Below are positions 13,945 to 41,892 of a DNA stretch of 64,000 nt, one piece after another. The number at the start of each line of letters is the position of its first letter. Within the stretch, counting starts at the first letter, position 1. This stretch comes from Clostridiales bacterium. Its GTDB lineage: Bacteria > Bacillota > Clostridia > TANB77 > CAG-508. The stretch lies in contig DNVW01000016.1 in the NCBI GenBank assembly GCA_003507395.1, positions 12,726-76,725 on the forward strand, read 5' to 3'. Position numbers and translations under genes: made by a program. The notes below the pieces were generated by a model that saw nothing but the letters and a program-made list of their open reading frames with translations, was not told where the DNA came from and searched no databases.

Positions 13945-13956
13945 TGACAATTTGGG

Positions 13957-23620: not shown

Positions 23621-23718
23621 GTGCCAATAGGGACGGGGAATTTTGGCACAAAAAATTTTAATTTAACAAAAAGCGAGTGAAAATGAAATTTCACTCGTTC
23701 TGGCGCAGATGGGCTTAA
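23621..23718. repeat. ~97-bp att-proximal repeat A. It consists of the GTGCCAATAGGGACGGGGAATTTTGGCAC hairpin, a CGAGTGAAA-ATGAAA-TTTCACTCG hairpin, and a degenerate tRNA-Leu 3' core (tggCgcagatgg at 23701-23712).
   Basis: It is ~96 percent identical to 29747-29844. It is preceded by a 10-bp tandem duplication, gtgccaatag x2. Confidence 0.7.
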
Positions 23719-23815
23719 ATTTTTACTCATCTTTTCTTACACCTTCAGGCTTTTTCAAATTTCGTATCTTTGTCCCGACATTGTCGGGAGATATTTTCTA
23801 TTCAATTATTTATTA

Positions 23816-24121
23816 TTATTCTACTTCGATTATCTTATTATTTTCTAGTAGTTTTTCATATTTCTCGTTCATCTTGTCCATATATTCTGTGTATTTATAC
23901 ATTTGTTTTTTCTGATGATAATCAAATATATCTCCATAAATATTAATTGTAGTTTGAATATTAGCATGTCCTAGAACTTTTTGCAATGTTGCTAAATCCA
24001 TACCAGCCTCAATACATCTAGTTGCAAAAGTATGCCTTAACATATGAACATGCACATCACTTGTCTTTTCATTTACATAGTGAACTCCTTTCGATTTAAG
24101 TTTGTTTTGTAAAGTTACCAT
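23816..24121 (-). pseudogene. Tyrosine recombinase/integrase, C-terminal ~100-codon remnant
   Basis: [41 protein letters not shown] aligns to the C-terminus of the integrase at 29979-31427. The N-terminal ~380 codons are missing. Confidence 0.75.
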
Positions 24122-24123
24122 CT

Positions 24124-24152
24124 ATTGACATTATTTCTTTAAAATTATATAA
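24124..24152 (+). promoter_or_regulatory. Consensus sigma-A promoter (TTGACA-17-TATAAT)
   Basis: Seen directly in the sequence. It abuts the truncated integrase and points toward the 24291 gene. Confidence 0.55.
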
Positions 24153-24290
24153 TATAGATATAGTTATAAGATACTTGATACATCTTATTGAAATAGTATA
24201 GAGACTTAGTTGTTACAACTATATATAACATATTATTATAAAAGTCAAGTAGTTTTCTAAAATTTTATAAGATTTTTTATGAGGTGTGAA

Positions 24291-25226
24291 ATGATTAGAG
24301 AAGAAAAGATTGAATTTACTGCAAAATGGTGCAAGTACAGTAAATATATAATTGAAAAGAAAGACGATAAATATTACATATTACCAGATAAAAATGCAAA
24401 ACCAAGTACATATGATCCATTTGAAGTAAAAAATCAAATATTAAAAGATTTATTAGTAATGGGTAAAGAATCAGTTGGTAATGAAATGTATAAACTTGGT
24501 AATAAGGAAGTAACAATTGAAGCACAAAGTAAAATGGAAAAATTCCAAAATTTAGTGTTTGAATTTGTAAGTAATTATGGATTACTTGGTAATTTTAGAT
24601 ATCTGCCAGAAAATTATGAATTTATGGATAATGGAGATATCCCTGTAAATTTAGGATATAATACTTCTATAAGTGCATTGGAATTTGAAAAGAAATATTT
24701 TTGGAAAGATTCAAAAATGGACTGGTCAAGTACAATGAAAGCAAACGATTATCACAGAAATACTGGTCTTAATGATGATTTTGAACAAATTGAAGGAGAT
24801 AGACTTAGTGATGTAATTTTTTCAAAAAATTATGCTGAAACTATTGCAGAAATTATTAACTTTGCAACAATTATATACAATAAAAAGCTTTTAATTTGTG
24901 CATACTTATATGATGATGTATCAGAAGATATAAGACAAGTATATCAAGAAAGTATTACTGGAGATAGCTTAAAAAAGCCAAATATTTCATATAGTGCTGA
25001 AGATGGACAAATAAAATTCAAATGGAATTTTATGTCTTTAAGTGAAATAATAGAAATTATCTTACTTTTAAATGAAACATCTGGAAGAACTGAAGTAAAA
25101 CTATGTAAGCATTGTGGTAAACCATTTATTGCTGAAAACATTAAAGCTGAATATGACACTATACAATGTAGGAATAGAGAAAATATAAACAAAAGCAGAC
25201 AAAAGAAGAATAATTATATTGAGTAA
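24291..25226 (+). CDS. Hypothetical protein with a C-terminal CxxC...C Zn-ribbon (paralog of 32549-33481)
   Basis: It is clearly homologous to the element B protein (KYxKYxI...YYIxPDK...; C-terminal CKHCxKPFIAxN...CRN). The RBS is gaggtg. It was not recognised as a named family. Confidence 0.45.
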   Translation: MIREEKIEFTAKWCKYSKYIIEKKDDKYYILPDKNAKPSTYDPFEVKNQILKDLLVMGKESVGNEMYKLGNKEVTIEAQSKMEKFQNLVFEFVSNYGLLGNFRYLPENYEFMDNGDIPVNLGYNTSISALEFEKKYFWKDSKMDWSSTMKANDYHRNTGLNDDFEQIEGDRLSDVIFSKNYAETIAEIINFATIIYNKKLLICAYLYDDVSEDIRQVYQESITGDSLKKPNISYSAEDGQIKFKWNFMSLSEIIEIILLLNETSGRTEVKLCKHCGKPFIAENIKAEYDTIQCRNRENINKSRQKKNNYIE

Positions 25227-25250
25227 ATTAAAATTATTTGGAGGTTGAAA

Positions 25251-26246
25251 ATGGAAATTAATTATCCACCATATAAAATTACTAATAAAATGTTAAACTA
25301 TGTATCAGATATAATGAAAAAAATTGGAGAAACAAATTATTTTGAAAATTTAAATAGATATCCAGAATTAAGAAGAAAATCAAGAATTAAATCAATTCAT
25401 TCTTCACTTGCTATTGAAAATAATCAATTATCATTATTTCAGGTTGAAGATGTAATAAATGGAAAACCAGTAATTGGAGAACAAAAAGATATACAAGAAG
25501 TAAAAAATGCTTATGAAGCTTATGAACAAATTGATAAAGTAAATCCATATTCTGTAGATGATTTAAAGAAAATACACGGAATATTAACTTTCTTAATTGA
25601 AAAAGATGCTGGTAAATTTAGAAATCATGGCGAAGCAGTTTATGATGGAGATATACAAATATTTATGGCTCCTCCTTACAAAATGGTTCCTACATTAATA
25701 GATAACTTATTTAACTGGATGAATGAAGTTAAAAACACAATAAATCCACTTATTTTATCGTCTATATTCCATTATGAATTTGTTTTCATACATCCTTTTC
25801 ATGATGGAAATGGTAGAACAGCAAGGATATGGCAAACTGCAATCTTATCACATTGGGAAAAAGCATTTACCTACTTACCTATTGAAAGTATGATTAGAAA
25901 AAATCAAGAAGAATATTATAAAGCTATTCAAAATTGTAACAATGCAGGAGAATCAACAGAATTTATAGAGTTTATGTTAAAAATTATTGATGACACAATA
26001 GATGAATTGATGAACTCAAAAGAAATGAGAGATAAAGCTCAATTACTACTTTCTGATAATGAAATGAAAATAATTGAATGTATTAAAAGAAATGTTTTAA
26101 TAGGTGCAAAAGAAATAATTAAAGAAACTAATATTGCTGATAGAACAGTAAGAAGAATTTTAAAAAAATTACTAGATAATAATACCATTGAAACAATTGG
26201 AAAAGGTGAAAAGGACCCTAATAAAAAATATAAAATTATTGAATAA
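25251..26246 (+). CDS. Fic-family protein with a C-terminal winged-helix DNA-binding domain
   Basis: Fic motif HPFHDGNGRTARIW. The C-terminus is wHTH-like (IIECIKRNVLIGAKEIIKETNIADRTVRRILKKL). Confidence 0.75.
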   Translation: MEINYPPYKITNKMLNYVSDIMKKIGETNYFENLNRYPELRRKSRIKSIHSSLAIENNQLSLFQVEDVINGKPVIGEQKDIQEVKNAYEAYEQIDKVNPYSVDDLKKIHGILTFLIEKDAGKFRNHGEAVYDGDIQIFMAPPYKMVPTLIDNLFNWMNEVKNTINPLILSSIFHYEFVFIHPFHDGNGRTARIWQTAILSHWEKAFTYLPIESMIRKNQEEYYKAIQNCNNAGESTEFIEFMLKIIDDTIDELMNSKEMRDKAQLLLSDNEMKIIECIKRNVLIGAKEIIKETNIADRTVRRILKKLLDNNTIETIGKGEKDPNKKYKIIE

Positions 26247-26260
26247 TGGCATAGTACTGA

Positions 26261-26458
26261 CATAGTAATGGCAGAGTTAAAAGTTATTTTTACAACTTCC
26301 CGACCATTTTTGATGAGTATATATTAGAAAATGGTCATGTAGACTTAAATCATTTCATTCGTTTTTATGAAGAAAATAAATCTAAGTATATTATCATTGA
26401 TGAATATAATACTGAATTTACTCTAGATGAGTTCTTAAGGGAAGTAAATTTAAAATAA
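26261..26458 (+). pseudogene. Start-less C-terminal ORF fragment beginning at the TAATGGCAGAG junction
   Basis: A 65-codon open frame (...YFYNFPTIFDEYILENGHVDLNHFIRFYEENKSKYIIIDEYNTEFTLDEFLREVNLK*) has no Met and a stop immediately upstream. Confidence 0.35.
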
Positions 26459-26483
26459 ATGTAATTTATAAAGAGGTTTAAAA

Positions 26484-26747
26484 ATGGAATTAAAAGATTT
26501 AGAAAAAGAAATTGAAAATATTAAAACTAGAAATAAAAAAGTTGAATTAGATAAAAAATGGGAAACGAGCTTAACTAGAAAAATATGTATTTGTATATTA
26601 ACATATATAGTTGTAATTGTCTATTCATACATAGTAAGAAATTACTCTAATATACTTTTAAGCTCACTTGTCCCTGTTATTGGTTTTACATTGTCAACAT
26701 TATCATTAAAATACATAAGAAAAATATGGGAGAAGAATATAAAATAA
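26484..26747 (+). CDS. Small two-TM membrane protein, hypothetical
   Basis: Hydrophobic segments are present. No motif was found. Confidence 0.3.
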   Translation: MELKDLEKEIENIKTRNKKVELDKKWETSLTRKICICILTYIVVIVYSYIVRNYSNILLSSLVPVIGFTLSTLSLKYIRKIWEKNIK

Positions 26748-26769
26748 ATATATTTAAGAGGTATATAAA

Positions 26770-27294
26770 ATGTTATATGTAATTAGACATGGACAAGTTG
26801 ATACAAATATAAAAAATCAGGTTAATGGCTGGAACGAGGAAAAACTTAATTCAGTAGGAATACAACAAGCTATAAATGCAGGTAATCAGCTTAAAAATAT
26901 AAAAATCGATGTAGTATTTTGTTCACCATTATTGAGAACAAAACAAACCTACAATAATTTAAATATAAAAGACATTCCAATTTTTTATGACGATAGGATA
27001 AAAGAAAGGAATTCTAATAGTATGGTTTATGCTGATGTAGAAACATTAGATAATAATATTTGGTATGATGGAACAAAAAATATTATATATAAAGATTCTG
27101 AAGGATTTAAGAGTATAATAAATAGAACTGAATCAATATTAAATGATATAAAAAATAATTATAAAGACAAAAATGTATTAATAGTCACTCACGGAGATGT
27201 TTGTAAAGCTGTTTATTTATATTTCAATCCAAATACCCAAGACATTAGTAAATTCCAACAAAATAATTGTGAAATAGTTTGTTATAAATTTTAG
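26770..27294 (+). CDS. Histidine phosphatase family protein (phosphoglycerate mutase-like)
   Basis: N-terminal catalytic RHG motif (LYVIRHGQVDTN) and the THGDV second His motif. Confidence 0.65.
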   Translation: MLYVIRHGQVDTNIKNQVNGWNEEKLNSVGIQQAINAGNQLKNIKIDVVFCSPLLRTKQTYNNLNIKDIPIFYDDRIKERNSNSMVYADVETLDNNIWYDGTKNIIYKDSEGFKSIINRTESILNDIKNNYKDKNVLIVTHGDVCKAVYLYFNPNTQDISKFQQNNCEIVCYKF

Positions 27295-27302
27295 GGGTGT
27301 TT

Positions 27303-27962
27303 ATGGGTAAAAAAAAGAATATAATTTATACAATTTTTATTATGGTATTTTCAATTATATGTGGAATAATATCAAAAGATTATTTTTTAGGAACTATAAT
27401 ACTTGCGAGTGGACTTCTTAATTCTTACTATGCAAGTGTTGGCAAAATATATAATTACATATTCGGAGCAGTTTATTGTGCTTTAAGTGGTTATGTTTGT
27501 TTGAAAACAGGTTTATATGGAATAGCCATTTTATCTTTTGCAGTTTATTTTCCATCACAAATACATGGGTATTTTAGTTGGAAAAATAAAAAGAATGAAA
27601 ATAAGGAAGTTAAAGTTAGAGGTTTTACTTTAAAAAACTCAATAATAATTATTTCTTCTTGTATTATTGGAAGTTTATTATTAGGGCTATTATTAAGTAA
27701 AATACCAACTCAACAATTAGTCTTTTTAGATTCTAGCAGCAATATTTTAAATCTATGTGGCATAATCCTTATGAATTTAAGATTTAAAGAATGCTGGGCT
27801 GTATGGTTATTTAATAATACTGTTGATTTAATAATCTGGGTTGTTAATTATATGAATAATACAGTAAATAGTACAATGATGTTATTAGTTTCAATTGGTT
27901 ATTTATTAATAAATATATATGGTTTAATAAAATGGTATAAAAAAAGTGGGTATGAAATATGA
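27303..27962 (+). CDS. pnuC: PnuC-like nicotinamide riboside transporter
   Basis: A ~220-aa polytopic protein with a terminal W..Y..K-rich tail. It lies adjacent to a nicotinamidase-like gene. The assignment is by similarity of topology and sequence feel, not a strict motif. Confidence 0.5.
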   Translation: MGKKKNIIYTIFIMVFSIICGIISKDYFLGTIILASGLLNSYYASVGKIYNYIFGAVYCALSGYVCLKTGLYGIAILSFAVYFPSQIHGYFSWKNKKNENKEVKVRGFTLKNSIIIISSCIIGSLLLGLLLSKIPTQQLVFLDSSSNILNLCGIILMNLRFKECWAVWLFNNTVDLIIWVVNYMNNTVNSTMMLLVSIGYLLINIYGLIKWYKKSGYEI

Positions 27963-28273
27963 AATATTGTATGATTGAAGTTGCCTTTGGAATTAAGAAA
28001 GAAGCAAATAAAGCAGTTGATGAATTATTAAATAAAAGATTAGTTGCAAGTTGTCAAATATTAGAAAGTAATAGCATTTGGAATTGGAAACAAAAACGAG
28101 AACAAAGCAAAGAATATATAGTTTTAATGAAAACACAGTTTTATTTACAGAATAAAATATACAATGTAATTAAAAATATACATAGTTATGAGTGTTTTGA
28201 GTTCGCTGTTTTTGAATTAAGCAGTTGTAATGAAGATTATTTAAATTGGATAGAATCAGAAACAAATAAATAA
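27959..28273 (+). CDS. cutA: CutA1-like divalent-cation tolerance protein
   Basis: VASCQIL...IWNWKQ...EYIVLMKTQ...IHSYECFEF...YLNWIESET matches the CutA signature pattern. Confidence 0.6.
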   Translation: MKYCMIEVAFGIKKEANKAVDELLNKRLVASCQILESNSIWNWKQKREQSKEYIVLMKTQFYLQNKIYNVIKNIHSYECFEFAVFELSSCNEDYLNWIESETNK

Positions 28274-28289
28274 TTGAGGAGAATAATAA

Positions 28290-28772
28290 ATGAATAGATT
28301 ATTATTAGTAATAGATGTTCAAAATGATTTTATAAATGAGCATACAAAAAATATTTTAACAAAAATAAAAGAATTAGTGGATTCAAATAAATATGATTTA
28401 ACTGCTTTTACTAGATTTATCAATGATGAAAATAGCATTTGGTATAAAAAATTAAATTATAAAGGCTGTATGACTAAAGAAGGACAAGCAATTGCTATTA
28501 ATACTAAAAACAATAAAGTATTTGATAAAAACATATATACTGCAGTAAATGATGAATTGAAAAAATATATTCAAAAAAATAATATTTCTAAAATATATTT
28601 ATGTGGCTTTGATACAGATGCTTGTGTTCAAAAAACTGCTATTGATTTATTTGAACAAAACTATGATGTATATGTTTTAAAAGATTATTGCATGAGCCAT
28701 TTAGGTAAGGAAACTCATGATTTTCATATAAATAATCTTGCAAGATTAATAGGAAAAGATAGAATTATTTAA
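28290..28772 (+). CDS. Isochorismatase-family hydrolase (nicotinamidase PncA-like)
   Basis: LLVIDVQNDF and the catalytic Cys context CGFDTDACV are present. Confidence 0.7.
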   Translation: MNRLLLVIDVQNDFINEHTKNILTKIKELVDSNKYDLTAFTRFINDENSIWYKKLNYKGCMTKEGQAIAINTKNNKVFDKNIYTAVNDELKKYIQKNNISKIYLCGFDTDACVQKTAIDLFEQNYDVYVLKDYCMSHLGKETHDFHINNLARLIGKDRII

Positions 28773-28773
28773 G

Positions 28774-28796
28774 CACTTCAAATTGAAGTGTTTTTT
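28774..28796 (+). terminator. Terminator (cacttcaa-a-ttgaagtg followed by a T6 run)
   Basis: It belongs to the same CTTCNNATTGAAG palindrome family as 2860 and 4901. Confidence 0.6.
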
Positions 28797-28830
28797 AGTT
28801 TAGATCTTCACATAATAGGAAAAGCTGAAT

Positions 28831-28859
28831 TTGCAAAAATTCACATAATGTGGTATAAT
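28831..28859 (+). promoter_or_regulatory. Consensus promoter TTGCAA-17-TGgTATAAT (extended -10)
   Basis: Seen directly in the sequence. It drives the GC-rich ORF. Confidence 0.55.
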
Positions 28860-28936
28860 TATATTGTATCACGTAAGTGAACATATCAAAAGTCCCTAAA
28901 TGGGCAATGCTTGCAATGCAAGCAAAAGGAGTCAGC

Positions 28937-29599
28937 ATGAGTAACGAAATCGCTAACAACGCATCCTTCATCTTTGCAGGTAAGAAGCCGAAATTCTTAA
29001 ATCTCGTGTACATTTCTTGTGAAGGCGACATTCAGAAACTTCCTGAAGATGTTCGGACTGCAGTTTCGCTGGAACCAGGAGGAGCAATCCGCGTAGAATC
29101 CAGAGAATATGCAAATGGAGAATTGATTCCCCTTCCTGCATACATCGCTTGGGAAAAGGAGGACAAGGACAAAGAAAGATGTCCTCATGGTTGGAATCTT
29201 TGGAACAAGGCGAATGCTTCCGCACAGCTTTCCGAAGGATTCCTCGAAGAAGTTGATGGTAAATTCCGTCAGACGAAGATAGTGCCCCTTAAAGCACAAC
29301 TCTTCACTGGTGAAATTCCCGAAATCTTTCTCGAGATGCCCCGTTTTGATGGGCAGGTAACCGTTGAAAACGGAAATCTGTTTATCAAGACTCCGTGGGG
29401 GATTTCCAATTGTAAAGCTGGTAACGGTTTTGCAATTGTATATGGTTTGGGAAATGACGCTGAAAAGCCTAAATTCTTCGGAATGCTTGATGGGAATATT
29501 CTTACCGTTGGAACAGCTTCGTTTGAAGATTACTACCACGTCACGGAGGATGGCAAGGTGATCGAAACTCTTCGCGAGTATTTTGAGAGCCTGCATTAA
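28937..29599 (+). CDS. Hypothetical protein encoded by a GC-rich (foreign-composition) cassette
   Basis: G+C and codon usage (GGC, CGC, CTG) are strikingly higher than the surroundings. The RBS is aaaggag. A long antisense ORF is typical of GC-rich DNA. No family was recognised. Confidence 0.5.
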   Translation: MSNEIANNASFIFAGKKPKFLNLVYISCEGDIQKLPEDVRTAVSLEPGGAIRVESREYANGELIPLPAYIAWEKEDKDKERCPHGWNLWNKANASAQLSEGFLEEVDGKFRQTKIVPLKAQLFTGEIPEIFLEMPRFDGQVTVENGNLFIKTPWGISNCKAGNGFAIVYGLGNDAEKPKFFGMLDGNILTVGTASFEDYYHVTEDGKVIETLREYFESLH

Positions 29600-29654
29600 A
29601 CCCCCAAATAGTCAACTGTGACTTGAGAAGATAGCTATCAACTCTAAAAACAGC

Positions 29655-29697
29655 CAAGAGCCAAGTCGTATACAAACGCTAGGCTCTTGTTTTATTT
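29655..29697 (+). terminator. Terminator (caagagcc ... ggctcttg followed by a T-run)
   Basis: An 8-bp stem and a T-tract at the end of the GC-rich block. Confidence 0.55.
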
Positions 29698-29746
29698 ATA
29701 TTTTAAGTCAGATTTAAACTTCTTTCAGATATAAAGTTAAATAATA

Positions 29747-29844
29747 TGCCAATAGGGACGGGGAATTTTGGCACAAAAATATTTTAATTTAACAAAAAGC
29801 GAGTGAAAATGAAATTTCACTCGTTCTGGTGCAGATGGACTTAA
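29747..29844. repeat. ~98-bp att-proximal repeat B (attR arm). It has the same two hairpins as repeat A and ends in a tRNA-Leu 3' core copy, tggtgcagatgg (29827-29838).
   Basis: The 12-bp core is identical to tRNA-Leu 3' end 41805-41816. Confidence 0.7.
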
Positions 29845-29894
29845 TAAAACTCCCATCTTTCTTAGTATTTCTCATAGATTTACAGCTTACCGTA

Positions 29895-29946
29895 TTTTTG
29901 GAACTTAGTTCCAAATTATTCTTATTAAATTTTTTAGTTCCAAATT
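29895..29946. repeat. TTTGGAAC / GTTCCAAATT 10-bp repeats (3 copies) just inside attR
   Basis: The same decamer recurs as direct repeats at 41645-41667, at the other end of the element. Confidence 0.45.
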
Positions 29947-29978
29947 TTCAATTTTATATCATATAAAATTCTATATTA

Positions 29979-31427
29979 TTATTTTAATTTTAAATATTCT
30001 TCTTCAAATCTTTCAAAGTTTTCTTCTAATATAGTATTTGTATCTTGCATATACTTTGTGTATTTTTGATTTAATTCCTTTTGTCTTAAATATGAGTAAA
30101 TATATCCATAAGTGTTTATAGTTGTAGTAATGTCTGCATGACCTAGAATTTTTTGTAATACTTCAATAGCAATTCCAGATTCTATACATCTTGTTGCAAA
30201 AGTATGCCTTAGCATATGAGTATGTGTATCACTTGATTTATAATTAACATAGTGTATTCCTTTTTTCTTACTAACTTTTTTATGTTTTAATGTTATAACT
30301 CTAAGTCCTGCATTTTTACATATTATTTTAAATGCTGAATTAACTTGTCCATCAGTATAAAAGTTGCCACTAGGTTTAGAAAATAATACATCATATTTAT
30401 TTTCTTTGTATTGTTCTAATGCTTTTTGTATCACTGGTACTGCTAAAGGTGTAAGATCTATTGTTCTTAATCCATTTTTAGTTTTAGTTATATCTCCAAT
30501 TACAACTTTATTGTTTATATCTTTTGTCAATGTTCTTCTAACATTAATGCTTCCAATATTTCCTACAATATTTATATCACTAGGTCTTAATGCAAGTATT
30601 TCTCCTATTCTCATTCCAGTATATAAAGCAATTAGTAATATTAGCTTATATTTTGATTTATGAGTTTTTAGATATTCTGTTAAAACATATTCTTCTTTTC
30701 TGGTAAAAGCATCAACCTTTTTATCTTCTTTAAAACTCTCTGGCTTTTTAATTCCCTCTCCAATTAAAAATGGATTTTTTTGAATAATACCATTTGCATA
30801 AGCAATAGAAAAAGCATTTTTAATTTTACTATAATATTTGTCTATTGAAGAATTAGATTTTGCTCGTTCACTTTCTAAATATTGTTTTATCTGGTTAGCT
30901 GTAACATTCTGTATTGGAATATTTGCGAATTTATAATTTCCAATTGCTTTTATAGTTTGCATATGCCTATTATAAGTGTTTGGTTTAATTTCCTTGTTTC
31001 TTACTCTTTTGGTTTCGTATGATTCACATATTGAAACAATAGTTGCATCTTTCTCTTTAGTTTTCTCAGTTTTCCCATGAATAGAAACATCTTGGATATA
31101 TTCAAGCATTTTATTTAAGGCTTCTTCTTTTGTTTTTCCATTAAATTGCATCCTATTTGTATCTTTTGTTGTGGATTTTCTGCCATTTGTTAAAAGCTCT
31201 ACTTTGAATTTGGGATAAATATAGAATTTATCGCAATGTTCTTTATCTTTACAATTATTGCAATCTTCACATTCTTTCATTTTGAATAGCTTTTTTCTAT
31301 TAGCACAAAATTCTTTGTGATTACAATTACTACAAGTAGGGCATATTGGTCTATCATTGGCTTTTCTTTTATCTTTAGTAGTATACTCGTGTACAGAATA
31401 GTCTTTGCCTTCAACTAAAGTTTTCAA
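29979..31427 (-). CDS. int: Tyrosine-type site-specific integrase with a Cys-rich N-terminal extension
   Basis: R..HxxR..Y catalytic region ([10 protein letters not shown] ... TINTYGYIY) and multiple CxxC motifs at the N-terminus. Confidence 0.85.
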   Translation of the reverse strand: MKTLVEGKDYSVHEYTTKDKRKANDRPICPTCSNCNHKEFCANRKKLFKMKECEDCNNCKDKEHCDKFYIYPKFKVELLTNGRKSTTKDTNRMQFNGKTKEEALNKMLEYIQDVSIHGKTEKTKEKDATIVSICESYETKRVRNKEIKPNTYNRHMQTIKAIGNYKFANIPIQNVTANQIKQYLESERAKSNSSIDKYYSKIKNAFSIAYANGIIQKNPFLIGEGIKKPESFKEDKKVDAFTRKEEYVLTEYLKTHKSKYKLILLIALYTGMRIGEILALRPSDINIVGNIGSINVRRTLTKDINNKVVIGDITKTKNGLRTIDLTPLAVPVIQKALEQYKENKYDVLFSKPSGNFYTDGQVNSAFKIICKNAGLRVITLKHKKVSKKKGIHYVNYKSSDTHTHMLRHTFATRCIESGIAIEVLQKILGHADITTTINTYGYIYSYLRQKELNQKYTKYMQDTNTILEENFERFEEEYLKLK

Positions 31428-31580
31428 ATTTCTTCCTCCTTTAAAAAATTTAAAGGAATACCTTGTCCGTTTTTCATCTCTTGTGATATAATCATTAAAG
31501 AGATAACGAAAAGATATCCCATCATTTCGGTCTAATCTCTGTTAGAGAATTTAGAAGTTCCTTTTCTAAGTTCTCATTTT

Positions 31581-31796
31581 TTATCTTAATGTTATAGATT
31601 TTGAATAGTCGTGTCTTTCCTTTAGAAATTCTTTAAAAGCATCTGCTTCAATCCACCAACTTCTACCAACTCTTTGAGCAGGGAATTCATTATTGTTAAA
31701 TAATTCTAGTCCTTTCTTTGGACCAATTTTTAACAACTGGCATACATCTTTTAAAGAATATACTTTCATTCCAGCAAGTTCTTGCATAAATATCAC
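31581..31796 (-). CDS. xis: Excisionase-family HTH DNA-binding protein
   Basis: KVYSLKDVCQLLKIGPKKGLELFNNNEFPAQRVGRSWWI matches the excisionase/MerR-like HTH pattern (RxWRI). Confidence 0.55.
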   Translation of the reverse strand: MIFMQELAGMKVYSLKDVCQLLKIGPKKGLELFNNNEFPAQRVGRSWWIEADAFKEFLKERHDYSKSITLR

Positions 31797-33670: not shown

Positions 33671-33719
33671 AAAAAATATGTTAATATAATGCTAATTTAG
33701 CTTTTAGGAGGCATAAACT

Positions 33720-34226: not shown

Positions 34227-34347
34227 ATAATGGCAAAGTTTTGGCAGAGTAATGGCAGAGCTTTATCTTACTGCTTAGATAAAAAAGCAGTAAGTTTAGC
34301 AGTATGAAATGACAAAGTATAATTCATTAAAGGAAAGGAAGTTTTTA

Positions 34348-34821
34348 ATGGAGAATATAGTAATTAGAAAAGCAATTTTGGAAGATGTTAGCTACATCCA
34401 AAATTTAAATAACGAATTATTTAAATTGGAAAAAGAAAACTATGACACAACTTTAGTTTTGAACTGGGCTTTAACAGAAGAAGGCAAAGATTATTTCGAA
34501 GATTTAATCAAAAATCAATATGTCATAGTCGCAACATTAGAAGATAAAATTATTGGTTATCTAGCAGGTTCAATAAATGAAAAAGGTAGTTATGAAGAAA
34601 TACAATATGGTGAAATTAATAATATGTTTATAAAAGAAGATTACAGACTATATGGCATTGGCAAAAAACTAATAAATAATTTTAAAAATTATTGCAGAAA
34701 TAATAATATCAGCAATTTAAAAGTGGTTGCAAGTTCAAAAAACAAAAATGCAATAGAGTTTTATAGAAAAAATGGATTTGATGATTTTAATTTAACTTTA
34801 ACTATGAATATTGGAGATTAA
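34348..34821 (+). CDS. GNAT-family N-acetyltransferase
   Basis: Acetyl-CoA binding motif (RLYGIGKKLINNF) and GNAT fold length. Confidence 0.7.
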   Translation: MENIVIRKAILEDVSYIQNLNNELFKLEKENYDTTLVLNWALTEEGKDYFEDLIKNQYVIVATLEDKIIGYLAGSINEKGSYEEIQYGEINNMFIKEDYRLYGIGKKLINNFKNYCRNNNISNLKVVASSKNKNAIEFYRKNGFDDFNLTLTMNIGD

Positions 34822-34824
34822 GAT

Positions 34825-35622
34825 ATGGATGGATTTTATGTAGGAGATATAATTGGCAATTCATATACTCACGAAAATGAGAAATATAACTTAAAAACAA
34901 AGGATTTTGAACTATTTACAAATAGAAGTAAATTTTCAGATGATACTATTCTATCTTTTGCAACTATATATTGGCTATTGCATACACATCATGAATCTAC
35001 TGAAATGATAACAGTTTTAAAAAAATTTTACGAAGAATACCCAGATAAAATTCCAACTATCTATGGAGAATCATTTGTAAATTGGATTACAAGTGTAAAA
35101 GATGAATACAGAAAATCGTCTGGAAACGGTGGTGCAATGAGGTCTTCTGTTATCGGATGGTATGCTAAAGATATAGAAGAACTTAAAAAATTAGTATATA
35201 AAGCAATTATGCCTACTCATAACGAAGAAGGAGCAATTAAAGCATCCGAAATCGTTGCCATTTCTATATTTCTATTTAAAAATAATTATACTAAAGATGC
35301 AGTATTGAATTATATTGAAAGTAATTATAATTATGATTTACATGAAAATATAAATTCATATAAAAACTATTACACATATACATCAGATGCAAAAGAAACT
35401 GTAAGACCTGCGTTAATTGCTTTCTTTAACTCGACTGACTATGAAGATAGTATTAGAAATGCGGTATCTTTTGGTGGAGATACAGATACTATTACTACAA
35501 TAAATTCATCAATAGCAGAAGCATATTATAAAGAGATACCTAAAAATATTTTAGAAAAAGCAATAAAATACTTACCAAGAGAATTCATTAATATATTAAA
35601 TGAATTCAAAAAATATATATGA
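34825..35622 (+). CDS. ADP-ribosylglycohydrolase (ARH/DraG family)
   Basis: FSDDT, GNGGAMR and GGDTDT metal-binding motifs. Confidence 0.75.
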   Translation: MDGFYVGDIIGNSYTHENEKYNLKTKDFELFTNRSKFSDDTILSFATIYWLLHTHHESTEMITVLKKFYEEYPDKIPTIYGESFVNWITSVKDEYRKSSGNGGAMRSSVIGWYAKDIEELKKLVYKAIMPTHNEEGAIKASEIVAISIFLFKNNYTKDAVLNYIESNYNYDLHENINSYKNYYTYTSDAKETVRPALIAFFNSTDYEDSIRNAVSFGGDTDTITTINSSIAEAYYKEIPKNILEKAIKYLPREFINILNEFKKYI

Positions 35623-35644
35623 TAAAAAATGTTAAAAGGATTTT

Positions 35645-37051
35645 ATGAATATGGAAGAATTGAAACAAATAATTGATAATAAATGTGTAGAATTTAAAGG
35701 GTTAAAAATATATACTGGATGGTTTTATGATTTTGCAGAGATGCTTTTACAACAAGGGTATACTCAAGAACAAATAAGTAATATATTAGAGCAGATAATG
35801 AGTACTGATTGTATGGAAAATATGAGTGGAAAAGGTATGATGAAGTATTTTGGAAACGTACAACCTGCTATTGATAATGAAAAAGCCTTTTTTGATTATA
35901 TAAAAAGCAAATTAGATATACAAAATCCAGAATACCTTGAAAGTGGATTACAATATGCATCACAAGAAACTAAAAATGTAGGAAATTTTATTGATGCTTT
36001 TATAAAATATGTTGTAATAACCAATTTCGAAGATTTGCAACTTCAATATAAAGACCAAACAACAGAACATTGGGAGCAAATGCTTGTTAGTTGTTGTTTG
36101 GGAAATTTTAGTTTAAGTACTATGCTATGTGAAGCCGAATCAGATAAAATATATTTTGATGAACTTCATACTAGAAAAAATTTAACAGGTACTAGAATTG
36201 GTGCTGTTTTATTTAAAAAATTAATGGAAAAAATACACAATGAATTCCCTGACAGAGATTTATATACATTAAGATTAAAAAAAGATAATGAAGGTGCTAA
36301 AAGATTTTATGAAAGAATGGGTGGAACAGTATATGACTATGGAGATGAATCACAATTTGGTGTAGTCTATAAAAAAGAAGATATGGAAGAATTATTTAAA
36401 AAAGAGGTCGTTCCTCCTACTTTATATCCTACTAAAAAAGAAGAATTTTTAAATAGTTTAAAAGTTAACATTACTAATAAAGAACCAGATCCATTTCCAT
36501 CAGATGAAGATATTATTGAAAAAATGGATATTAATGATAAGTTTTATAGTTTTGACATGGATGATATTGATAAAAAAATAAAGATTCCAAAGCTAGCCAA
36601 AAATGGAGAACAGTTATATTTATATCGTAGAAGTATAAGAAATAGACAATTAGGCTCTAGTAATTCTAGAATAGATTCACAATATTTTATTTTAAATAAT
36701 TCTGGACAAATTGTTGGCAGAGTTCCTGTTTCAGTTTTAGAGCCTTATTCATTAAGTATGGATTATTGGATACGAGATGAATTTCAAGGACAAGGCATTG
36801 GGACTGTGGTTTTAGAAGAAATAGTAAAACAAATTTACGATGGAAAAGAATTCGATGGAATAGACTGTATATCAGCTAAATTTCCAGAAGCAAATAAAAC
36901 ATCAATACAAAATATTAAATTAGAAATATCAGACGATAACGAAGCTAGTATTAAAATTGCTTCAAAAAATGGATTCAAAAAAGCAGGTGAACGATATTAT
37001 TCACTAACTTTAAATAACTTTCTTGAAAGAAATCAAGAAAGAGCCAAATAA
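35645..37051 (+). CDS. Protein with two GNAT-like acetyltransferase domains plus an uncharacterised N-terminal region
   Basis: Two acetyl-CoA motifs are present: LTGTRIGAVLFKKLMEK and FQGQGIGTVVLEEIVKQ. Confidence 0.5.
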   Translation: MNMEELKQIIDNKCVEFKGLKIYTGWFYDFAEMLLQQGYTQEQISNILEQIMSTDCMENMSGKGMMKYFGNVQPAIDNEKAFFDYIKSKLDIQNPEYLESGLQYASQETKNVGNFIDAFIKYVVITNFEDLQLQYKDQTTEHWEQMLVSCCLGNFSLSTMLCEAESDKIYFDELHTRKNLTGTRIGAVLFKKLMEKIHNEFPDRDLYTLRLKKDNEGAKRFYERMGGTVYDYGDESQFGVVYKKEDMEELFKKEVVPPTLYPTKKEEFLNSLKVNITNKEPDPFPSDEDIIEKMDINDKFYSFDMDDIDKKIKIPKLAKNGEQLYLYRRSIRNRQLGSSNSRIDSQYFILNNSGQIVGRVPVSVLEPYSLSMDYWIRDEFQGQGIGTVVLEEIVKQIYDGKEFDGIDCISAKFPEANKTSIQNIKLEISDDNEASIKIASKNGFKKAGERYYSLTLNNFLERNQERAK

Positions 37052-37078
37052 ATAACTGTATTTATTCGGCTCTTTTTC
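37040..37078. terminator. Bidirectional terminator (agagccaaataaata ... tatttattcggctct)
   Basis: A 15-bp stem with one mismatch, followed by a T-run. Confidence 0.6.
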
Positions 37079-37079
37079 T

Positions 37080-37859
37080 CTAATATCCGCCATCAATTGT
37101 AAGAACTTCTCCATTAATATAAGTTGATTCTTCGCTAGATAAAAAATAGATTGTATTGGCTATTTCGCTTGGTGTAGCAAATCTGTTTAGGAATATTTTC
37201 TTATTTTCTTCTTCAATATATTCTTTTGGTAAATCTTTATTCATATCTGTATCTGCCCATCCAATAGCTATAGCATTTACTCTTATATTTGGTTTGAATT
37301 GAAATGCCAAATCCCTTGTTAAACTCTGCAATCCAACCTTGGAAATATTGTAGTCAATAGATTCTGGTGCAATAACCTTTGTTCCATTTGTTGATGATAC
37401 ATTAATAATTGAACTTCCTTTTTTCATATATTTAGAAACTTCTCTAGATACAATAAATGCACCTAAAACATTTACTCTAATTGTATTCTCAAATTCAGAT
37501 ACTGTTGCTTTATAAATATCTCTATCAAAAACTATACCTGCACAATTCACAAGTACATCTATTTTTCCAAATCTATCTATAATCTTTTTTATACCACTTA
37601 TTATTTCTGCTTCGTTTGAAACATCCATTTCTACAATCATTGTCTGAATTCCATATTGCTTTTCAACATATTCTTTTAACTTTTTAGCATCTTCTTCATT
37701 GTTAAATTCAAAATCGCCATCAACAAATTTAAGTTTTGCCTCTTTTTCACTAGATATATAATTTATAACTACATTATAACCTTTTTTTGCAAATTCAATA
37801 ATTGTTGCTCTACCAATTCCTCTTGAACTACCTGTAACTAAAACTACTTTATTTTCCAT
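37080..37859 (-). CDS. Short-chain dehydrogenase/reductase (SDR) family oxidoreductase
   Basis: TGSSRGIG Rossmann motif, the NCAG motif and the YxxxK catalytic site. Confidence 0.8.
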   Translation of the reverse strand: MENKVVLVTGSSRGIGRATIIEFAKKGYNVVINYISSEKEAKLKFVDGDFEFNNEEDAKKLKEYVEKQYGIQTMIVEMDVSNEAEIISGIKKIIDRFGKIDVLVNCAGIVFDRDIYKATVSEFENTIRVNVLGAFIVSREVSKYMKKGSSIINVSSTNGTKVIAPESIDYNISKVGLQSLTRDLAFQFKPNIRVNAIAIGWADTDMNKDLPKEYIEEENKKIFLNRFATPSEIANTIYFLSSEESTYINGEVLTIDGGY

Positions 37860-37882
37860 GTTTTCACTTCTTTCTAATACTT

Positions 37883-38413
37883 CTAATTAATTTTTTTCAT
37901 ATATAATCTTCTTAAAAATCCATTTGATAGTTTTGTTTCCTTTACAAACTCTAGTCCTATTTTTTCCAATGTTTTACAACTTGCTACATTATCAGGATGT
38001 GCCATTGAAATAATATAGTCAAAATTTAATTCTTTTGCAAGATTCATTTCAAGTGTTTGTAATTTAGTAGTAATTCCTAATCCTCTATATTCTGGCAATA
38101 CTAAATTTCCACCTAATTCACATACTTTGTACTCAGTTAAATCAAATTCCTTTTTAAAATCTTCTAACATATCTTGTGAAACATATAATTGTGCCATTCC
38201 TACAAGTTTATTACCATCATAAGCTCCATATAATGGTGCATAGTTTACTTCATCAAACATACTATCTAATTCCCATTGTTCATATGGAATAAAATGATTT
38301 TGGTCTGGTAATCCACTTAATACTATATCTATAAGTTTAAATAACTGCTCTTTGTCTTTTTCTTCAATCTTTTTATATGTTAATTCCATAAAATTGATCT
38401 CCTTTATAATCAA
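37883..38413 (-). CDS. GNAT-family N-acetyltransferase
   Basis: EYRGLGITTKLQTLE acetyl-CoA motif. Confidence 0.7.
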   Translation of the reverse strand: MIIKEINFMELTYKKIEEKDKEQLFKLIDIVLSGLPDQNHFIPYEQWELDSMFDEVNYAPLYGAYDGNKLVGMAQLYVSQDMLEDFKKEFDLTEYKVCELGGNLVLPEYRGLGITTKLQTLEMNLAKELNFDYIISMAHPDNVASCKTLEKIGLEFVKETKLSNGFLRRLYMKKIN

Positions 38414-38488
38414 AATAATTATGACTATATATTACCATTTTTTACTCTTTTTATCAAGTAACTGAGAAATACAATTACTAAAAAAATA

Positions 38489-39778
38489 TTATCTACCTCT
38501 CGATTTATCTTTTTTCTTATCTTTAACAATTTCTTTTGATTTTTCAATTTTAAGTTGATTTTTAAGCAGAATGGTTCTATTTTCAATTTCATAGCAGCCC
38601 ACGATATCTTTATTGGTTTTATTAATTAAAGCCTTTAAATTGGCAATTTCGTGTGTAATTTTCCCTTTGATTTCAGGATTTGTTTCTCTTTTTCTTTTTC
38701 TCCATAGATTTTCTCTTTTGCCTTTTAAATTTCGTACTTTCTCCTCTAAATTGAATCTATAAGATTTAAGTTCTTCTAAGTTATTAATTTTATTTTCAGA
38801 TAGTAAAATGGTTTGCTTACTTAAACTTTCTAAATGTTTTAAAGATATTTTCATTTCTTTTGTAATTGGTACTCTATAGTTTCCAATTTCAATTTTTTCA
38901 GGGAGTGGGTCAATTCTTAATAATATGCATATTAGAATATATAATGCAGGAAGTTCTCGTAATTGATGCTCTCTTTGTTTTTGCTTAAATTTATTATATT
39001 CTTCAATACTCATTTTATATTTTTTCTTTGGAATATAAACTTGACTATAAGTTTTATTTTCAATTCTATATCGTATCTTTTCTTTAGTATAATTATCTCC
39101 AAATAATTCTTGTGGTCTTACAACTTGGTAACTATTATCTCTTTCAATAATAATTCCTGTATCTTCATTTTCTGAAACATAATAGCCTTTTGCTTCTAGC
39201 TTTGATACAAACCCCTTATATGAATATGAAATAGCAATTGCATCATCTATATCTTTTTTTACTAATTGCATATATGGATTATTTTTAGCATACAGCTTAT
39301 AATAGCCTTTATTCTTCCACGGAGTTTTTATAACGCTTAATCCATTTTCTCTGCATATAAAATCAGATGTTATTCTTATAAAGTCTTTTGTTTCTCTATT
39401 ACTATAAAACTTATACCCACTTTTAAAAGAAACAGAATTTATAACAATATGGTTGTGTACATTATCTGTATTTAGATGTGTTGCAACTACAAATTGAAAG
39501 TCATCTCCAAACAGTTCTTTAGCATATTGTAATCCTAGCTCGTGGCATTTCTTTGGAGATATTTCTTTTCCATCAAATGATTGTATTAAATGGTAAGATA
39601 TTATTCCATCTTCTTTATCAAATCTTTTCTTTGTATCTTGCATTTCGTAAATTGCAGTGTCTGGTCTGCAATTTACACCAGACACATACATCATCTTTTC
39701 AGTTTTCTCGCCATTCATAATATACTTAATTATTGTGTTTAATCTTGTTTTTCTAGTCAAAAATTTTGTGACCGCCAT
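38489..39778 (-). CDS. MobA/VirD2-type relaxase (mobilization nuclease)
   Basis: HLNTDNVHNHIVINS histidine triad. The probable start is MAVTKF... at 39778. The longer track ORF adds 18 unlikely residues. Confidence 0.75.
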   Translation of the reverse strand: MAVTKFLTRKTRLNTIIKYIMNGEKTEKMMYVSGVNCRPDTAIYEMQDTKKRFDKEDGIISYHLIQSFDGKEISPKKCHELGLQYAKELFGDDFQFVVATHLNTDNVHNHIVINSVSFKSGYKFYSNRETKDFIRITSDFICRENGLSVIKTPWKNKGYYKLYAKNNPYMQLVKKDIDDAIAISYSYKGFVSKLEAKGYYVSENEDTGIIIERDNSYQVVRPQELFGDNYTKEKIRYRIENKTYSQVYIPKKKYKMSIEEYNKFKQKQREHQLRELPALYILICILLRIDPLPEKIEIGNYRVPITKEMKISLKHLESLSKQTILLSENKINNLEELKSYRFNLEEKVRNLKGKRENLWRKRKRETNPEIKGKITHEIANLKALINKTNKDIVGCYEIENRTILLKNQLKIEKSKEIVKDKKKDKSRGR

Positions 39779-40118
39779 AGTAAACTCCACCTTCTTTCTT
39801 GGTTGGGGTAAGGTAGAAGTTTTGTAAATCATCTATCATGTCATTAACTTTATTAGCAAGTGGATAATATTTATTATCATCAACATACTGATATGTGTTA
39901 GCTACTCTTGCAAGTTGATTTATATTTATTGCAATACCTCTTAAATCATTTAGTATTTTATAAAAGTTTTCATCAGGTTTTTCTTTTATTTGAGTATCAT
40001 TAATGACATGTCTAAAAAAAGCAGATTCTGATAAACCTGCTTTCAAACATTTCTTTTTTAGTAATTCATTTTCTCTACTATTAAGCCATACTTGTTTTTT
40101 TATTGATCTTGTTCGCAT
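39753..40118 (-). CDS. mobC: MobC-like relaxosome accessory protein (ribbon-helix-helix)
   Basis: RTRSIKKQVWLNSRENELLKKKCLKAGLSESAFFRHVI matches the MobC pattern. Its stop overlaps the relaxase start. Confidence 0.65.
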   Translation of the reverse strand: MRTRSIKKQVWLNSRENELLKKKCLKAGLSESAFFRHVINDTQIKEKPDENFYKILNDLRGIAININQLARVANTYQYVDDNKYYPLANKVNDMIDDLQNFYLTPTKKEGGVYYGGHKIFD

Positions 40119-40284
40119 AAATTATCATCTCCAATCTCTAATATTTTTTTATAAAACTTTTCTAAAGTTTTGTTTAAAGTATATATTTTATAATTTGTAC
40201 TTTAAGAATTGTGCGGTAGTACAAATTCATGGCTTGCTTTATACATAAAAACAACAATTGTACTACCACACGCCAGAGTTATTT

Positions 40285-40635
40285 TTACTTTAAAATGCCC
40301 ATATTTTTGAAATAAAAGTAAGCCTCATTGCCACCTAAAAAGAACAATTCTTTTGCTTCAATTTCCTTCATATTGTAAAATATTTGTACCAATTTAGATA
40401 ACATTTTACATTCATAATTGTTCAGATTTCTTCCTTCATTTTGTCCTTCTAAAACCCAATTTAAATTTTTATTTTTTCTTAATAATTCATAATATTGTTC
40501 TTGTAATTGTTTGTATTTTTCATTTTTATTTTTCAAATTTCCAATAATATCTTCTAAATATTCTTCAAACATATCTTCATATTCTTTATAAAAACTTTTG
40601 ATTTCACTCATAACATTTACCTCACTTTTAATCAT
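40285..40635 (-). CDS. Hypothetical protein (element B backbone)
   Basis: An intact ORF with no recognisable motif. Confidence 0.3.
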   Translation of the reverse strand: MIKSEVNVMSEIKSFYKEYEDMFEEYLEDIIGNLKNKNEKYKQLQEQYYELLRKNKNLNWVLEGQNEGRNLNNYECKMLSKLVQIFYNMKEIEAKELFFLGGNEAYFYFKNMGILK

Positions 40636-40679
40636 GAATTAGTTCTTTTAGTACAATTTCTTCAGCTCTATTTTTTATA

Positions 40680-41039
40680 TTATTCATCTTTCCGTACCCA
40701 TTCTAGTTGGTTATTAGCCTTTAATTCTTCAGTAACATTTTCCTTTTTAGCTAATTCTTTTATAATAGCATTTACTCTTTCTGTAGCTGTTATATCTATA
40801 TCCATTAAATGCTTTTGTAGTTTATTTTCCATTTGTAAAATCATATATTCAGCTTTCTTATTAGTCTTTAAATAGTTAAGTCTTAACCTTCCATATTTAC
40901 CTAATTTAAAATTTTTAATATTACTTGGTGCTACTATATTTGGTATATAATAATCTCCTTGTAATACATACTCAATACCAGTTTTACTATCTACAAATTT
41001 TTCTTTTAGATTTCCATTTTCATCATATCTTTCATCCAT
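40680..41039 (-). CDS. Hypothetical protein (element B backbone)
   Basis: An intact ORF with no recognisable motif. Confidence 0.3.
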   Translation of the reverse strand: MDERYDENGNLKEKFVDSKTGIEYVLQGDYYIPNIVAPSNIKNFKLGKYGRLRLNYLKTNKKAEYMILQMENKLQKHLMDIDITATERVNAIIKELAKKENVTEELKANNQLEWVRKDE

Positions 41040-41053
41040 TTTATAAATCCTCC

Positions 41054-41605
41054 TTAATCTACAAAATTAGCATATAAGCTATTTAAAAATTCTTTTGTAT
41101 ATTGCCTTTGTTCATAATTGCAATAATTTTTATTAGTTATATTAGTATTTTTATTATTAGTATAGTTAGGACGTAAATTCTCCGATTCATGAGTCGTAGA
41201 ATTTACGCTTCGTGAGTCGGAATTTTTACGAGTCAGATTATCGAATTTTTCATCGTGTACCATTTGGGCAGGGTATAAAAGTTTTGGTTTAGCTTTTCCT
41301 TGACTTTTTTCTAATAATAATTTTGCATCTACTAATTCTTTAAATGTTTTTGTACAAGTTTTATCTGAAATATGCAGTATGCTTTGTATTTCTTTTCTAG
41401 TAAATATTAAATAAATATTTCCGTTTTTATCTACCCAATTATTCTTAATAGATAGAGTTAGCCTGTCTAATAAAATACCATAAAGAAGTATTGCAGCAGG
41501 AGATAAAGAAATATATCTCTCATTTACAAAAAGTTCTTTTGGTATCATATAAAATTTGTATTGATAAATATCTTTTTGATTTATAAATTTAAAATCTTTT
41601 TCCAT
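41054..41605 (-). CDS. RepA_N-family replication initiator (N-terminal wHTH)
   Basis: FYMIPKELFVNERYISLSPAAILLYGILLDR is typical of Firmicute RepA_N initiators. Confidence 0.65.
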   Translation of the reverse strand: MEKDFKFINQKDIYQYKFYMIPKELFVNERYISLSPAAILLYGILLDRLTLSIKNNWVDKNGNIYLIFTRKEIQSILHISDKTCTKTFKELVDAKLLLEKSQGKAKPKLLYPAQMVHDEKFDNLTRKNSDSRSVNSTTHESENLRPNYTNNKNTNITNKNYCNYEQRQYTKEFLNSLYANFVD

Positions 41606-41644
41606 ATTTTGTCCTTTCCGAACTTAATATGAAATAAACTAAAA

Positions 41645-41667
41645 AATTTGGAACTTTAATTTGGAAC
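41645..41667. repeat. AATTTGGAAC direct repeats (13-bp period), putative iterons or arm sites
   Basis: Two exact copies lie upstream of repA_N. The reverse complement recurs at 29908 and 29937. Confidence 0.45.
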
Positions 41668-41804
41668 GAAATTTGATTATTTTTGAGAAACTGACAGAAA
41701 TTTGCAAAAAAGAAAAACACTTATCAAACTATATTGATAAGTGCTTTTGACGATTTTCTATTTTTATAGATTTCTCTAAATTTCTCTAGAAAATCGTAAG
41801 TGTT

Positions 41805-41892
41805 TGGTGCAGATGGCCGGAATCGAACCGGCACGGTTTATTCAACCGCAGGATTTTAAGTCCTGTGCGTCTACCAGTTCCGCCACATCTGC
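41805..41892 (-). tRNA. tRNA-Leu (anticodon UAA) with a long variable arm and encoded CCA
   Basis: The reverse complement reads GCAGATGTGGCGGAACTGGTAGACGCACAGGACTTAAAATCCTGCGGTTGAATAAACCGTGCCGGTTCGATTCCGGCCATCTGCACCA. It has a 7-bp acceptor stem and a T-arm GGTTCGATTCC. Confidence 0.85.

Follow-up and report, generated by a model that had tools for sequence, protein, structure and literature searches.

The 3' end of the tRNA-Leu(UAA) gene in the 64-kb stretch of DNA analysed here (contig DNVW01000016.1, 64,000 nucleotides, hereafter the window), which stems from an uncultured human-gut Clostridium, holds with high probability an accretion array composed of an active integrative and mobilizable element (IME), here called element B, and of older remnants, here called region A (Table 1). 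Copies of the last 12 nt of the tRNA mark the boundaries of B and the outer end of region A, and a segment flanking the tRNA, referred to as the arm, is present twice. Contigs read for comparison are designated by L and a number.

The tRNA-Leu(taa) is the sole tRNA of the window as judged by ARAGORN and Rfam. In the sense of the tRNA, its 3' end consists of C, CATCTGC (acceptor strand), A (discriminator) and CCA (CCATCTGCACCA), the reverse complement of which is the plus-strand 12-mer TGGTGCAGATGG. Besides its position within the tRNA gene (41805-41816), the 12-mer occurs exactly at 29827-29838 and as TGGCGCAGATGG, with the discriminator base as the single mismatch, at 23701-23712, as had been claimed with exact coordinates in an earlier reading of the letters alone (the sequence-only reading); from shuffles, 0.07 matches at up to one mismatch are expected.

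Element B is a genuine insertion with a 12-bp target duplication. Ten contigs of the same species (L002-4, L010, L011, L013-17) are without B and possess a precise empty site, which reads ...CACTCGttcTGGTGCAGATGGccggaatcg..., that is arm and tRNA around one single 12-mer. As the 12-bp repeat represents the last 12 nt of the tRNA, the gene stays intact upon insertion. The tRNA-side ends of B-type elements differ between copies beyond the 12-mer (cgtaagtgtt versus cgtaaatatg), and the identity of the repeat is confined to the 12-mer because these bases of B beside the tRNA vary between B variants. The integrase end of B always stops at the 12-mer (CCATCTGCACCA), beyond which at least four different flanks of unrelated sequence follow. 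B is carried by about half of the contigs read, with copies 94.6-99.96% identical to one another, and the flanks are 99.4-99.8% identical among strains of the same species. Furthermore, over 6.8-11.6 kb B reaches 99.94-99.97% identity in contigs with a syntenic pyrophosphatase flank of 77.8% identity, and a third background, next to gatCAB, harbours a 99.96% identical copy; in all three genomic backgrounds B abuts tRNA-Leu(taa). Equally, exact protein look-up assigned the pyrophosphatase of the window to a deposit of Clostridium sp. CAG:798 and the integrase of B (IntB) to a deposit of Clostridium sp. CAG:567. At the level of sequence, these comparisons show an apparently very recent horizontal transfer of B with strict site specificity, and B is very probably still active.

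The tRNA-Leu site is a population-wide hotspot occupied by at least five element types. Element C (L012) is located between the Spo0E-side arm and the tRNA side, without region A, and encodes a full 483-aa integrase, a Fic protein, a cyclic-oligonucleotide-based antiphage signalling system (CBASS; CD-NTase and Cap15, L012:14812-16354) and the same relaxase-to-RepA_N module as B. Element D (L107:11602-19461; same contig as L008 and L018) is Tn4451-like, is inserted at the last bases of the same tRNA and encodes a 639-aa serine recombinase, Mob_Pre, TnpV and a 985-aa metallophosphatase; its attP would be the palindrome TCGTTGG-CA-CCAACGA with CA as crossover dinucleotide. Remnants of D were recognized at L006:7223-9767 and L118:2934-5795, and the position of D relative to B is variable, outside in one strain and towards the tRNA in another. 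Element E (L020:10427-14267; also L122, L124 and L126) contains TnpV, Mob_Pre, the anti-Thoeris protein Tad4 and a 67-aa open reading frame (ORF), and element H (L121: about 10950-16100) contains RepA_N, Mob_Pre, a 472-aa protein and a protein with HATPase and helix-turn-helix (HTH) domains, with no recognisable integrase in either of the two. On their distal side, E and H are bordered by a 45-nt 3' half of tRNA-Leu, which starts from the anticodon loop, followed by the arm, and on their proximal side by an arm copy that ends ...CCCTATTGGCAT. The array orders seen are tRNA-B-D-A; D then B; C then D remnant then B; H-A; and A-E, a variation that speaks for independent, repeated integrations. 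Defence genes are found in the slot beside a conserved 310/315-aa backbone gene, namely a SoFic-like gene in A and C, CBASS in C and TIR_2 plus an SLFN/HATPase protein in a B variant (L133, 5800-7926), where they stand in place of PemK.

The arm copies, 23622-23712 and 29747-29838, differ over about 91 nt by a single 1-nt indel and one mismatch; weak similarity runs a few bases further into the integrase-side ends. In the sense of the tRNA, the 12-mer is followed by a hairpin with a 9-bp stem and a U run (intrinsic terminator), and then by a second hairpin, GTGCCAA...TTGGCAC (z = -4.6). The latter (GTGCCAAWAGGGACGGGGAATTTTGGCAC) is a short dispersed repeat found at 23610-23650, 29747-29775, 57215-57240 (+) and 57286-57311 (-); at the outer arm, one to three tandem copies about 38 bp apart are present depending on the strain, with three in L002, L010 and L018. 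A conserved arm of about 97 bp, next to an integrase gene, had been noted in the sequence-only reading around each distal copy of the 12-mer. The duplication itself is real; the arm is the native downstream flank of the tRNA and not element DNA, because it is directly continuous with the tRNA in the ten contigs of the same species without B.

This assignment changes what has to be explained by the stacking of elements. The sole arm copy in the contig L012, which is without region A, is copy 1; L006, with the same element type, has no arm copy on the tRNA side; and in L128 arm copy 1 directly abuts a B-type integrase end. B- and C-type elements duplicate the 12-mer only, so that stacking of such elements should leave a single arm at the far end, with the second copy unexplained. 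The tandem array by successive integrations, as initially proposed, is borne out by the strain series and by the precise empty site of B, with the exception of the arm duplication, which a B-type insertion does not explain. The last base of the arm adjoining region A is the one at which the proximal arm copies of E and H stop as well, and the outer, native arm continues differently.

Region A is, by its gene content and its identities, a decayed remnant resembling a cis-mobilizable element (CIME), with element C rather than B as the nearest intact relative. The integrase stub retains HxxR, H and Y but has neither the first Arg nor any of the N-terminal two thirds; it is 92% identical on the nucleotide level to the 3' end of the 483-aa integrase gene of C, with a match over about the last 90 codons only. 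The early distinction between a full-length and a truncated integrase holds, IntB being a complete tyrosine recombinase and the stub no more than a C-terminal fifth. Equally, the Fic gene of region A is 89.5% identical to the Fic gene of element C on the nucleotide level, as compared to about 69% identity between A and B. The stub is the sole integrase remainder in A, which is without xis, relaxase and RepA_N; of its att copies, the inner 12-mer is exact, and the outer one has one mismatch here and two in many strains. The comparison of strains for presence and absence, which had been suggested as a check, revealed, besides the ten contigs without B, two strain types without A between the same flanks (L012/L006 and L128). 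The A-less L012 and L128 are compatible with, and not proof of, a CIME-type loss in cis. No homology of A to element C is found beyond about 26277, approximately 30 bp after Fic, and A probably unites what is left of a C-type element with what is left of a second, long-repeat class which carries the arm copy. Of the two related elements assumed at the outset, one intact and one decayed, the decayed relative has been recognized, with the qualifications that it is nearer to C than to B and probably composite.

A history of the locus can be proposed on this basis. In a first step, a C-type element would have inserted at the same 12-mer and subsequently lost most of its integrase, the excisionase and the transfer genes to become a CIME-like remnant. 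The distal part of A (about 26278-29746), together with the second arm copy, would most likely originate from another element class without recognisable integrase, whose attP includes a copy of the tRNA 3' flank and which would generate long repeats of about 91-140 bp, and a deletion would then have fused this long-repeat remnant to the C-type remnant. Element B would have come last, integrating into the intact tRNA with the older material being pushed outward. For its mobility, IntB and the excisionase (Xis) would recombine the two 12-mers to release B as a circle with the expected attP junction ...CGTAAGTGTT-TGGTGCAGATGG-ACTTAATAAAAC..., leaving behind a repaired attB expected to read ...CACTCGTTC-TGGTGCAGATGG-CCGGAATCG...; the relaxase would nick the origin of transfer (oriT) of B, a co-resident conjugative element would supply the pore, and in the recipient IntB would insert the circle into the 3' end of tRNA-Leu.

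A number of observations weigh against an active B on top of older remnants. A pattern of the attP junction covering B- and C-type ends gave 0 matches in JGI metagenomes, no excised circle was found, with short contigs carrying integrase variants ending before any junction, and for B no oriT was mapped and no helper conjugative element identified. Equally, the internal junction expected in A, a tRNA 3' half between its two remnants, is missing, so that a deletion must be assumed and the composite origin of A is deduced from the shapes of the junctions. A fully empty site (tRNA-arm-Spo0E) was not seen among the contigs read, and the order of the oldest events is consequently a reconstruction. 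Furthermore, a scan of the genome collection with the pyrophosphatase did not yield the species representative, the best match being 80%. These best relatives, Candidatus Merdicola and uncultured Clostridia, have kept the side with pyrophosphatase, TPR, DpaA and BacA, and none of the queried left-side genes was found within the flank of up to 10 kb, so that little can be said from distant relatives on the ancestral layout.

Among the alternative explanations, the one that survives best, while still being unlikely, considers region A as one decayed C-type element whose attP held the 12-mer together with terminator and hairpin, such that a single integration would have duplicated the 91-nt arm. 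No internal deletion joining two remnants would then be needed, on the integrase side the arm homology reaches exactly as far as the 12-mer, and no tRNA fragment is found inside A. Against it stands the intact C-type element of L012 and L006, whose tRNA-proximal end is identical to that of B and without arm. Equally, the other junction of those E and H elements whose arms end at the same base as that of A is a 45-nt tRNA half and not an integrase end, and the homology to C comes to an end about 30 bp after Fic. Quite improbable is a region A that is ancestral chromosome, with the stub as a stray relic, the second arm derived from a segmental duplication or homologous recombination and B as the only mobile part. 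It is true that A is present in nearly all contigs of the same species read and that a part of it looks metabolic (PnuC, nicotinamidase-like isochorismatase, histidine phosphatase); however, two strain types are without A between the same flanks, three genes of A belong to the backbone or the cargo of the same element family, a 220-aa gene of A lies in a stretch of unusually high G+C content, and relatives with a 73-80% identical pyrophosphatase have none of the genes of A upstream. Moreover, A is more diverged than the flanks (97.2-99.75% identity between strains versus about 99.5%), and in several strains (L004, L016, L017, L020, L002, L003 and L013 were compared) PnuC (27297-27962) is deleted or truncated and the isochorismatase (28290-28772) split; the NAD-salvage-like block of A seems to be under relaxed selection. 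L013 possesses two extra genes (Imp-YgjV, Ser hydrolase) after the 87-aa ORF.

Still less probable is a joint arrival of A and B as a composite by cis-mobilization of a pre-formed array. Tandem transfer of a CIME with an integrative and conjugative element (ICE) has been documented elsewhere (PMC5704250), and both outer att copies are retained here. Against this, A is commonly found with no B next to it, B-type elements are present in L128, which is without A, and, with different neighbours, in other species, the order of the partners varies, and the copies of B diverge by up to 5% from strain to strain, A being shared. The least credible suggestion, which takes B for a prophage, for a phage satellite or for a plasmid that entered by homologous recombination, can draw on the resemblance of its RepA_N and relaxase to those of small Firmicute plasmids and is contradicted by 0 of 15 ORFs with a match to a capsid, terminase or portal family, by a precise 12-bp repeat that adjoins genes for a tyrosine integrase and a candidate excisionase, by the same site in three genomic backgrounds and by a megablast search of the plasmid collection without a match to B at about 85% identity or above.

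Element B is, in fact, an IME and not an ICE or a prophage, because integrase, excisionase candidate, relaxase and MobC are present and mating-pore and phage genes are not. It has its own integration and excision module, is an att-bounded insertion with an empty site and encodes a relaxase without a mating pore. In Pfam and NCBIfam searches, no family of a mating pore, that is type IV secretion system, or of a coupling protein was detected in its 15 ORFs or in A, and capsid, terminase, portal and packaging-hijack genes were equally not found in either of the two. The classification as IME rather than prophage had already been made in the sequence-only reading on account of relaxase, MobC and RepA_N; all these domain assignments hold, with the reservation that the role of the short (183-aa) RepA_N in replication is uncertain, as such short RepA_N proteins of IMEs may not be replication initiators (PMC5357655). 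The relaxase of B has distant relatives on 1,478 Firmicute plasmid records, of which 1,082 are typed as mobilizable, all with less than 60% identity.

IntB spans positions 10-165 of PF00589 and displays the full-length signature of a tyrosine recombinase (R...HxxR...H/W...Y), with the catalytic Lys not assigned; alignment with the integrase of element C (IntC) places the catalytic residues at the Arg in TGMRIGE, H404-x-x-R407, H430 and Y440. Its best match in the PDB is chain 6EMY_A ('Int protein'; E 5e-16), which we take to be the Tn1549 integrase. IntB and IntC (L012:10571-12022), which are 47% identical, have a Cys-rich N-terminus of about 70 aa (31220-31427, -, in the case of IntB) in common (CPxCxNCNHK..C...C..C.NC.D...CDKF). 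Located at the usual position of the arm-binding domain of such integrases, this stretch may be a zinc-binding DNA-binding module. The putative regulator with the HTH is kept beside xis in all copies of B, the 310-aa backbone protein has no match in Pfam or NCBIfam, and no known defence family was recognized by PADLOC in the cargo of B. Five of the nine TTTGGAAC matches of the window are clustered at the two ends of B, at most about 160 bp away from them, with 2.5 expected in the whole window, and the motif is also found in the end of an older element in L101. The clustering at the ends is a pattern as expected of arm-type binding sites of the integrase or Xis, for which the motifs are candidates.

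Further 12-mers with one mismatch, at 4067, 7707, 48167 and 52223, were considered as possible secondary att sites and rejected; they are regarded as coincidences in coding sequences, because all lie within ordinary ORFs and have no additional similarity to the tRNA or its flanks. Two of them are near a TTTGGAAC motif (4067-4096 and 7617-7718) within the long ORFs 3582-4745 and 7596-8744, which was judged coincidental as well.

In region A, the 220-aa ORF (28937-29599, +) is situated in a high-G+C stretch (0.381 in the interval 29001-30000 as compared to about 0.26 elsewhere). It is overlapped by long ORFs on the opposite strand and conserved in all strains carrying A. No match was obtained in Pfam, PADLOC or Rfam, and with no RNA recognized by Rfam at 28877-29599, the stretch reads as a protein gene. 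A 220-aa gene in common with Holdemanella biformis was considered and dropped: the protein so labelled (WP_418786069.1, same 90% cluster) lies in a locus of the Clostridium sp. CAG:798 type, and the label probably derives from a mis-binned contig, because all six contexts shown (L121-L126) are of this type.

Table 1. Features of the tRNA-Leu(UAA) locus (positions in the window)
Feature	Position	Strand	Basis or remark
Arm copy 1 (terminator and hairpin), adjoins chromosomal Spo0E-like and lgt genes	23622..23700	-	Likely original tRNA flank
Outermost att copy, TGGCGCAGATGG; in many strains TGGCGCAGATGA	23701..23712		12-mer search and strain comparison
Region A, decayed non-autonomous CIME-like segment, probably two fused remnants with break near 26277	23713..29746		Strain comparison
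Integrase stub, 101 aa, C-terminal part only	23816..24121	-	PF00589 positions 121-168 of 172
315-aa backbone homologue; Fic/DOC and winged HTH protein (SoFic-like defence gene, 25245-26246)	24279..26246	+	PADLOC SoFic 4.9e-49
87-aa ORF, histidine phosphatase, PnuC, CutA1, isochorismatase/nicotinamidase-like, 220-aa ORF (28937-29599)	26484..29599	+	Presumed cargo of second decayed element
Arm copy 2 (terminator and hairpin)	29747..29826	-	Joined to tRNA wherever B is absent
attR core of B, inner junction with older region A	29827..29838		B stops exactly here in every flank context seen
Element B, 11,966-bp IME	29839..41804		Empty site in sister contigs; near-identical copies elsewhere
Three TTTGGAAC motifs, 60-105 bp within int-proximal end	29897..29944		Motif count
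IntB, 482-aa tyrosine integrase, Cys-rich N-terminus	29979..31427	-	PF00589 3.7e-23; PF13102 (SAM-like domain)
Putative excisionase (HTH_17), immediately upstream of int	31581..31796	-	PF12728 7.4e-08
149-aa putative regulator, weak sigma-70 region-4-like HTH	31851..32300	-	PF04545 1.8e-4, below cutoff
310-aa conserved backbone protein, C-terminal CxxC	32549..33481	+	Homologue of region A 315-aa protein, BLASTP 31%, E 3e-46
Cargo: PemK/MazF-like, GNAT, ADP-ribosylglycohydrolase, double GNAT, SDR, GNAT	33720..38413		Pfam/NCBIfam
Mobilization module: MobA/VirD2-type relaxase (38489-39832), NikA/MobC (39753-40118)	38489..40118	-	PF03432 4.6e-38; PF21983, PF05713
DUF6664, TnpV, short (183-aa) RepA_N, tRNA-proximal end	40285..41605	-	Domain searches
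Two TTTGGAAC motifs, about 140-160 bp within tRNA-proximal end of B	41647..41667		Motif count
Element-borne hairpin and T run, replaces native terminator downstream of reconstituted tRNA	41713..41748	-	Inverted repeat, 15-nt arms, 93% complementary
attL core of B (12-bp direct repeat, copy within tRNA)	41805..41816		12-mer search
tRNA-Leu(UAA) (taa), intact	41805..41892	-	ARAGORN; Rfam RF00005, 61.9 bits

Mobile DNA has clearly accumulated at one tRNA hotspot here, which is nothing out of the ordinary, and the current understanding of IMEs and of accretion is not changed by the locus. Its value lies in a very recently mobile IME family that moves between uncultured gut Clostridia at a single tRNA-Leu site and in a natural series of unusual completeness, in which the presence, absence and stacking order of the elements vary from one accretion state to the next. 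This material can be useful for the annotation of such genomes and for work on the assembly of defence islands; SoFic, CBASS, a TIR gene and Tad4 are carried by elements of the site. The elements without recognisable integrase might, in addition, exploit the others. E, H and the distal part of A display 91-140-bp copies of the tRNA-Leu 3' half, terminator and hairpin, which include the 12-mer core used by IntB and IntC, and a speculative and rather doubtful interpretation is that these elements are parasites of integrase-bearing IMEs or RecA-dependent Campbell integrants. If true, each insertion would rebuild the full landing pad and accretion would be open-ended, with the site as a self-renewing store of defence (SoFic, CBASS, TIR) and anti-defence (Tad4) genes.

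Several known systems resemble the tRNA-Leu locus in part. With modules of the Tn916/Tn1549 type, element B has in common the arrangement of a regulator, xis (HTH_17) and int at the end of the element reading outward, with distant sequence similarity. Elements of the Tn916 family are conjugative and show little specificity in their choice of AT-rich insertion sites; unlike these, B is site-specific for a tRNA and without conjugation genes. NBU1 of Bacteroides, an IME whose tyrosine integrase targets the tRNA-Leu 3' end (PMC5704250), is, as B, mobilizable, about 10 kb in size, with a short common core and in need of a helper conjugative element; it belongs to a different phylum than the host of B, and the likeness is one by description. 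Streptococcal IMEs at the tRNA-Leu 3' end are known with Tyr_8 integrases and short repeats and with Tyr_1 integrases and long repeats (Coluzzi et al., 2017; PMC5357655). As at the present locus, they are about 10 kb in size with a terminal tyrosine integrase, a relaxase and sometimes a short RepA_N, and show frequent tandem accretion, with short- and long-repeat classes at the same tRNA gene. This likeness is again by description, the host here is a Clostridium, and a relaxase of the PF03432 family as in B was found in 1 of the 144 IMEs of the streptococcal survey (PMC5357655). In the ICESt1/ICESt3-CIME arrays of Streptococcus thermophilus, the partners encode related, non-identical integrases as in the case of B and A (Guedon et al., 2017; PMC5704250); the targets are, however, fda or ribosomal protein genes instead of the tRNA-Leu of an uncultured gut Clostridium, and the remnant at the present locus has a flanking repeat of 91 nt in place of a short one and is probably a composite in its own right. 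The published three-step model of accretion, with integration, decay to a CIME and entry of a further IME at whichever att site contains the end of the gene (PMC5704250), fits and describes the tRNA-Leu locus well.

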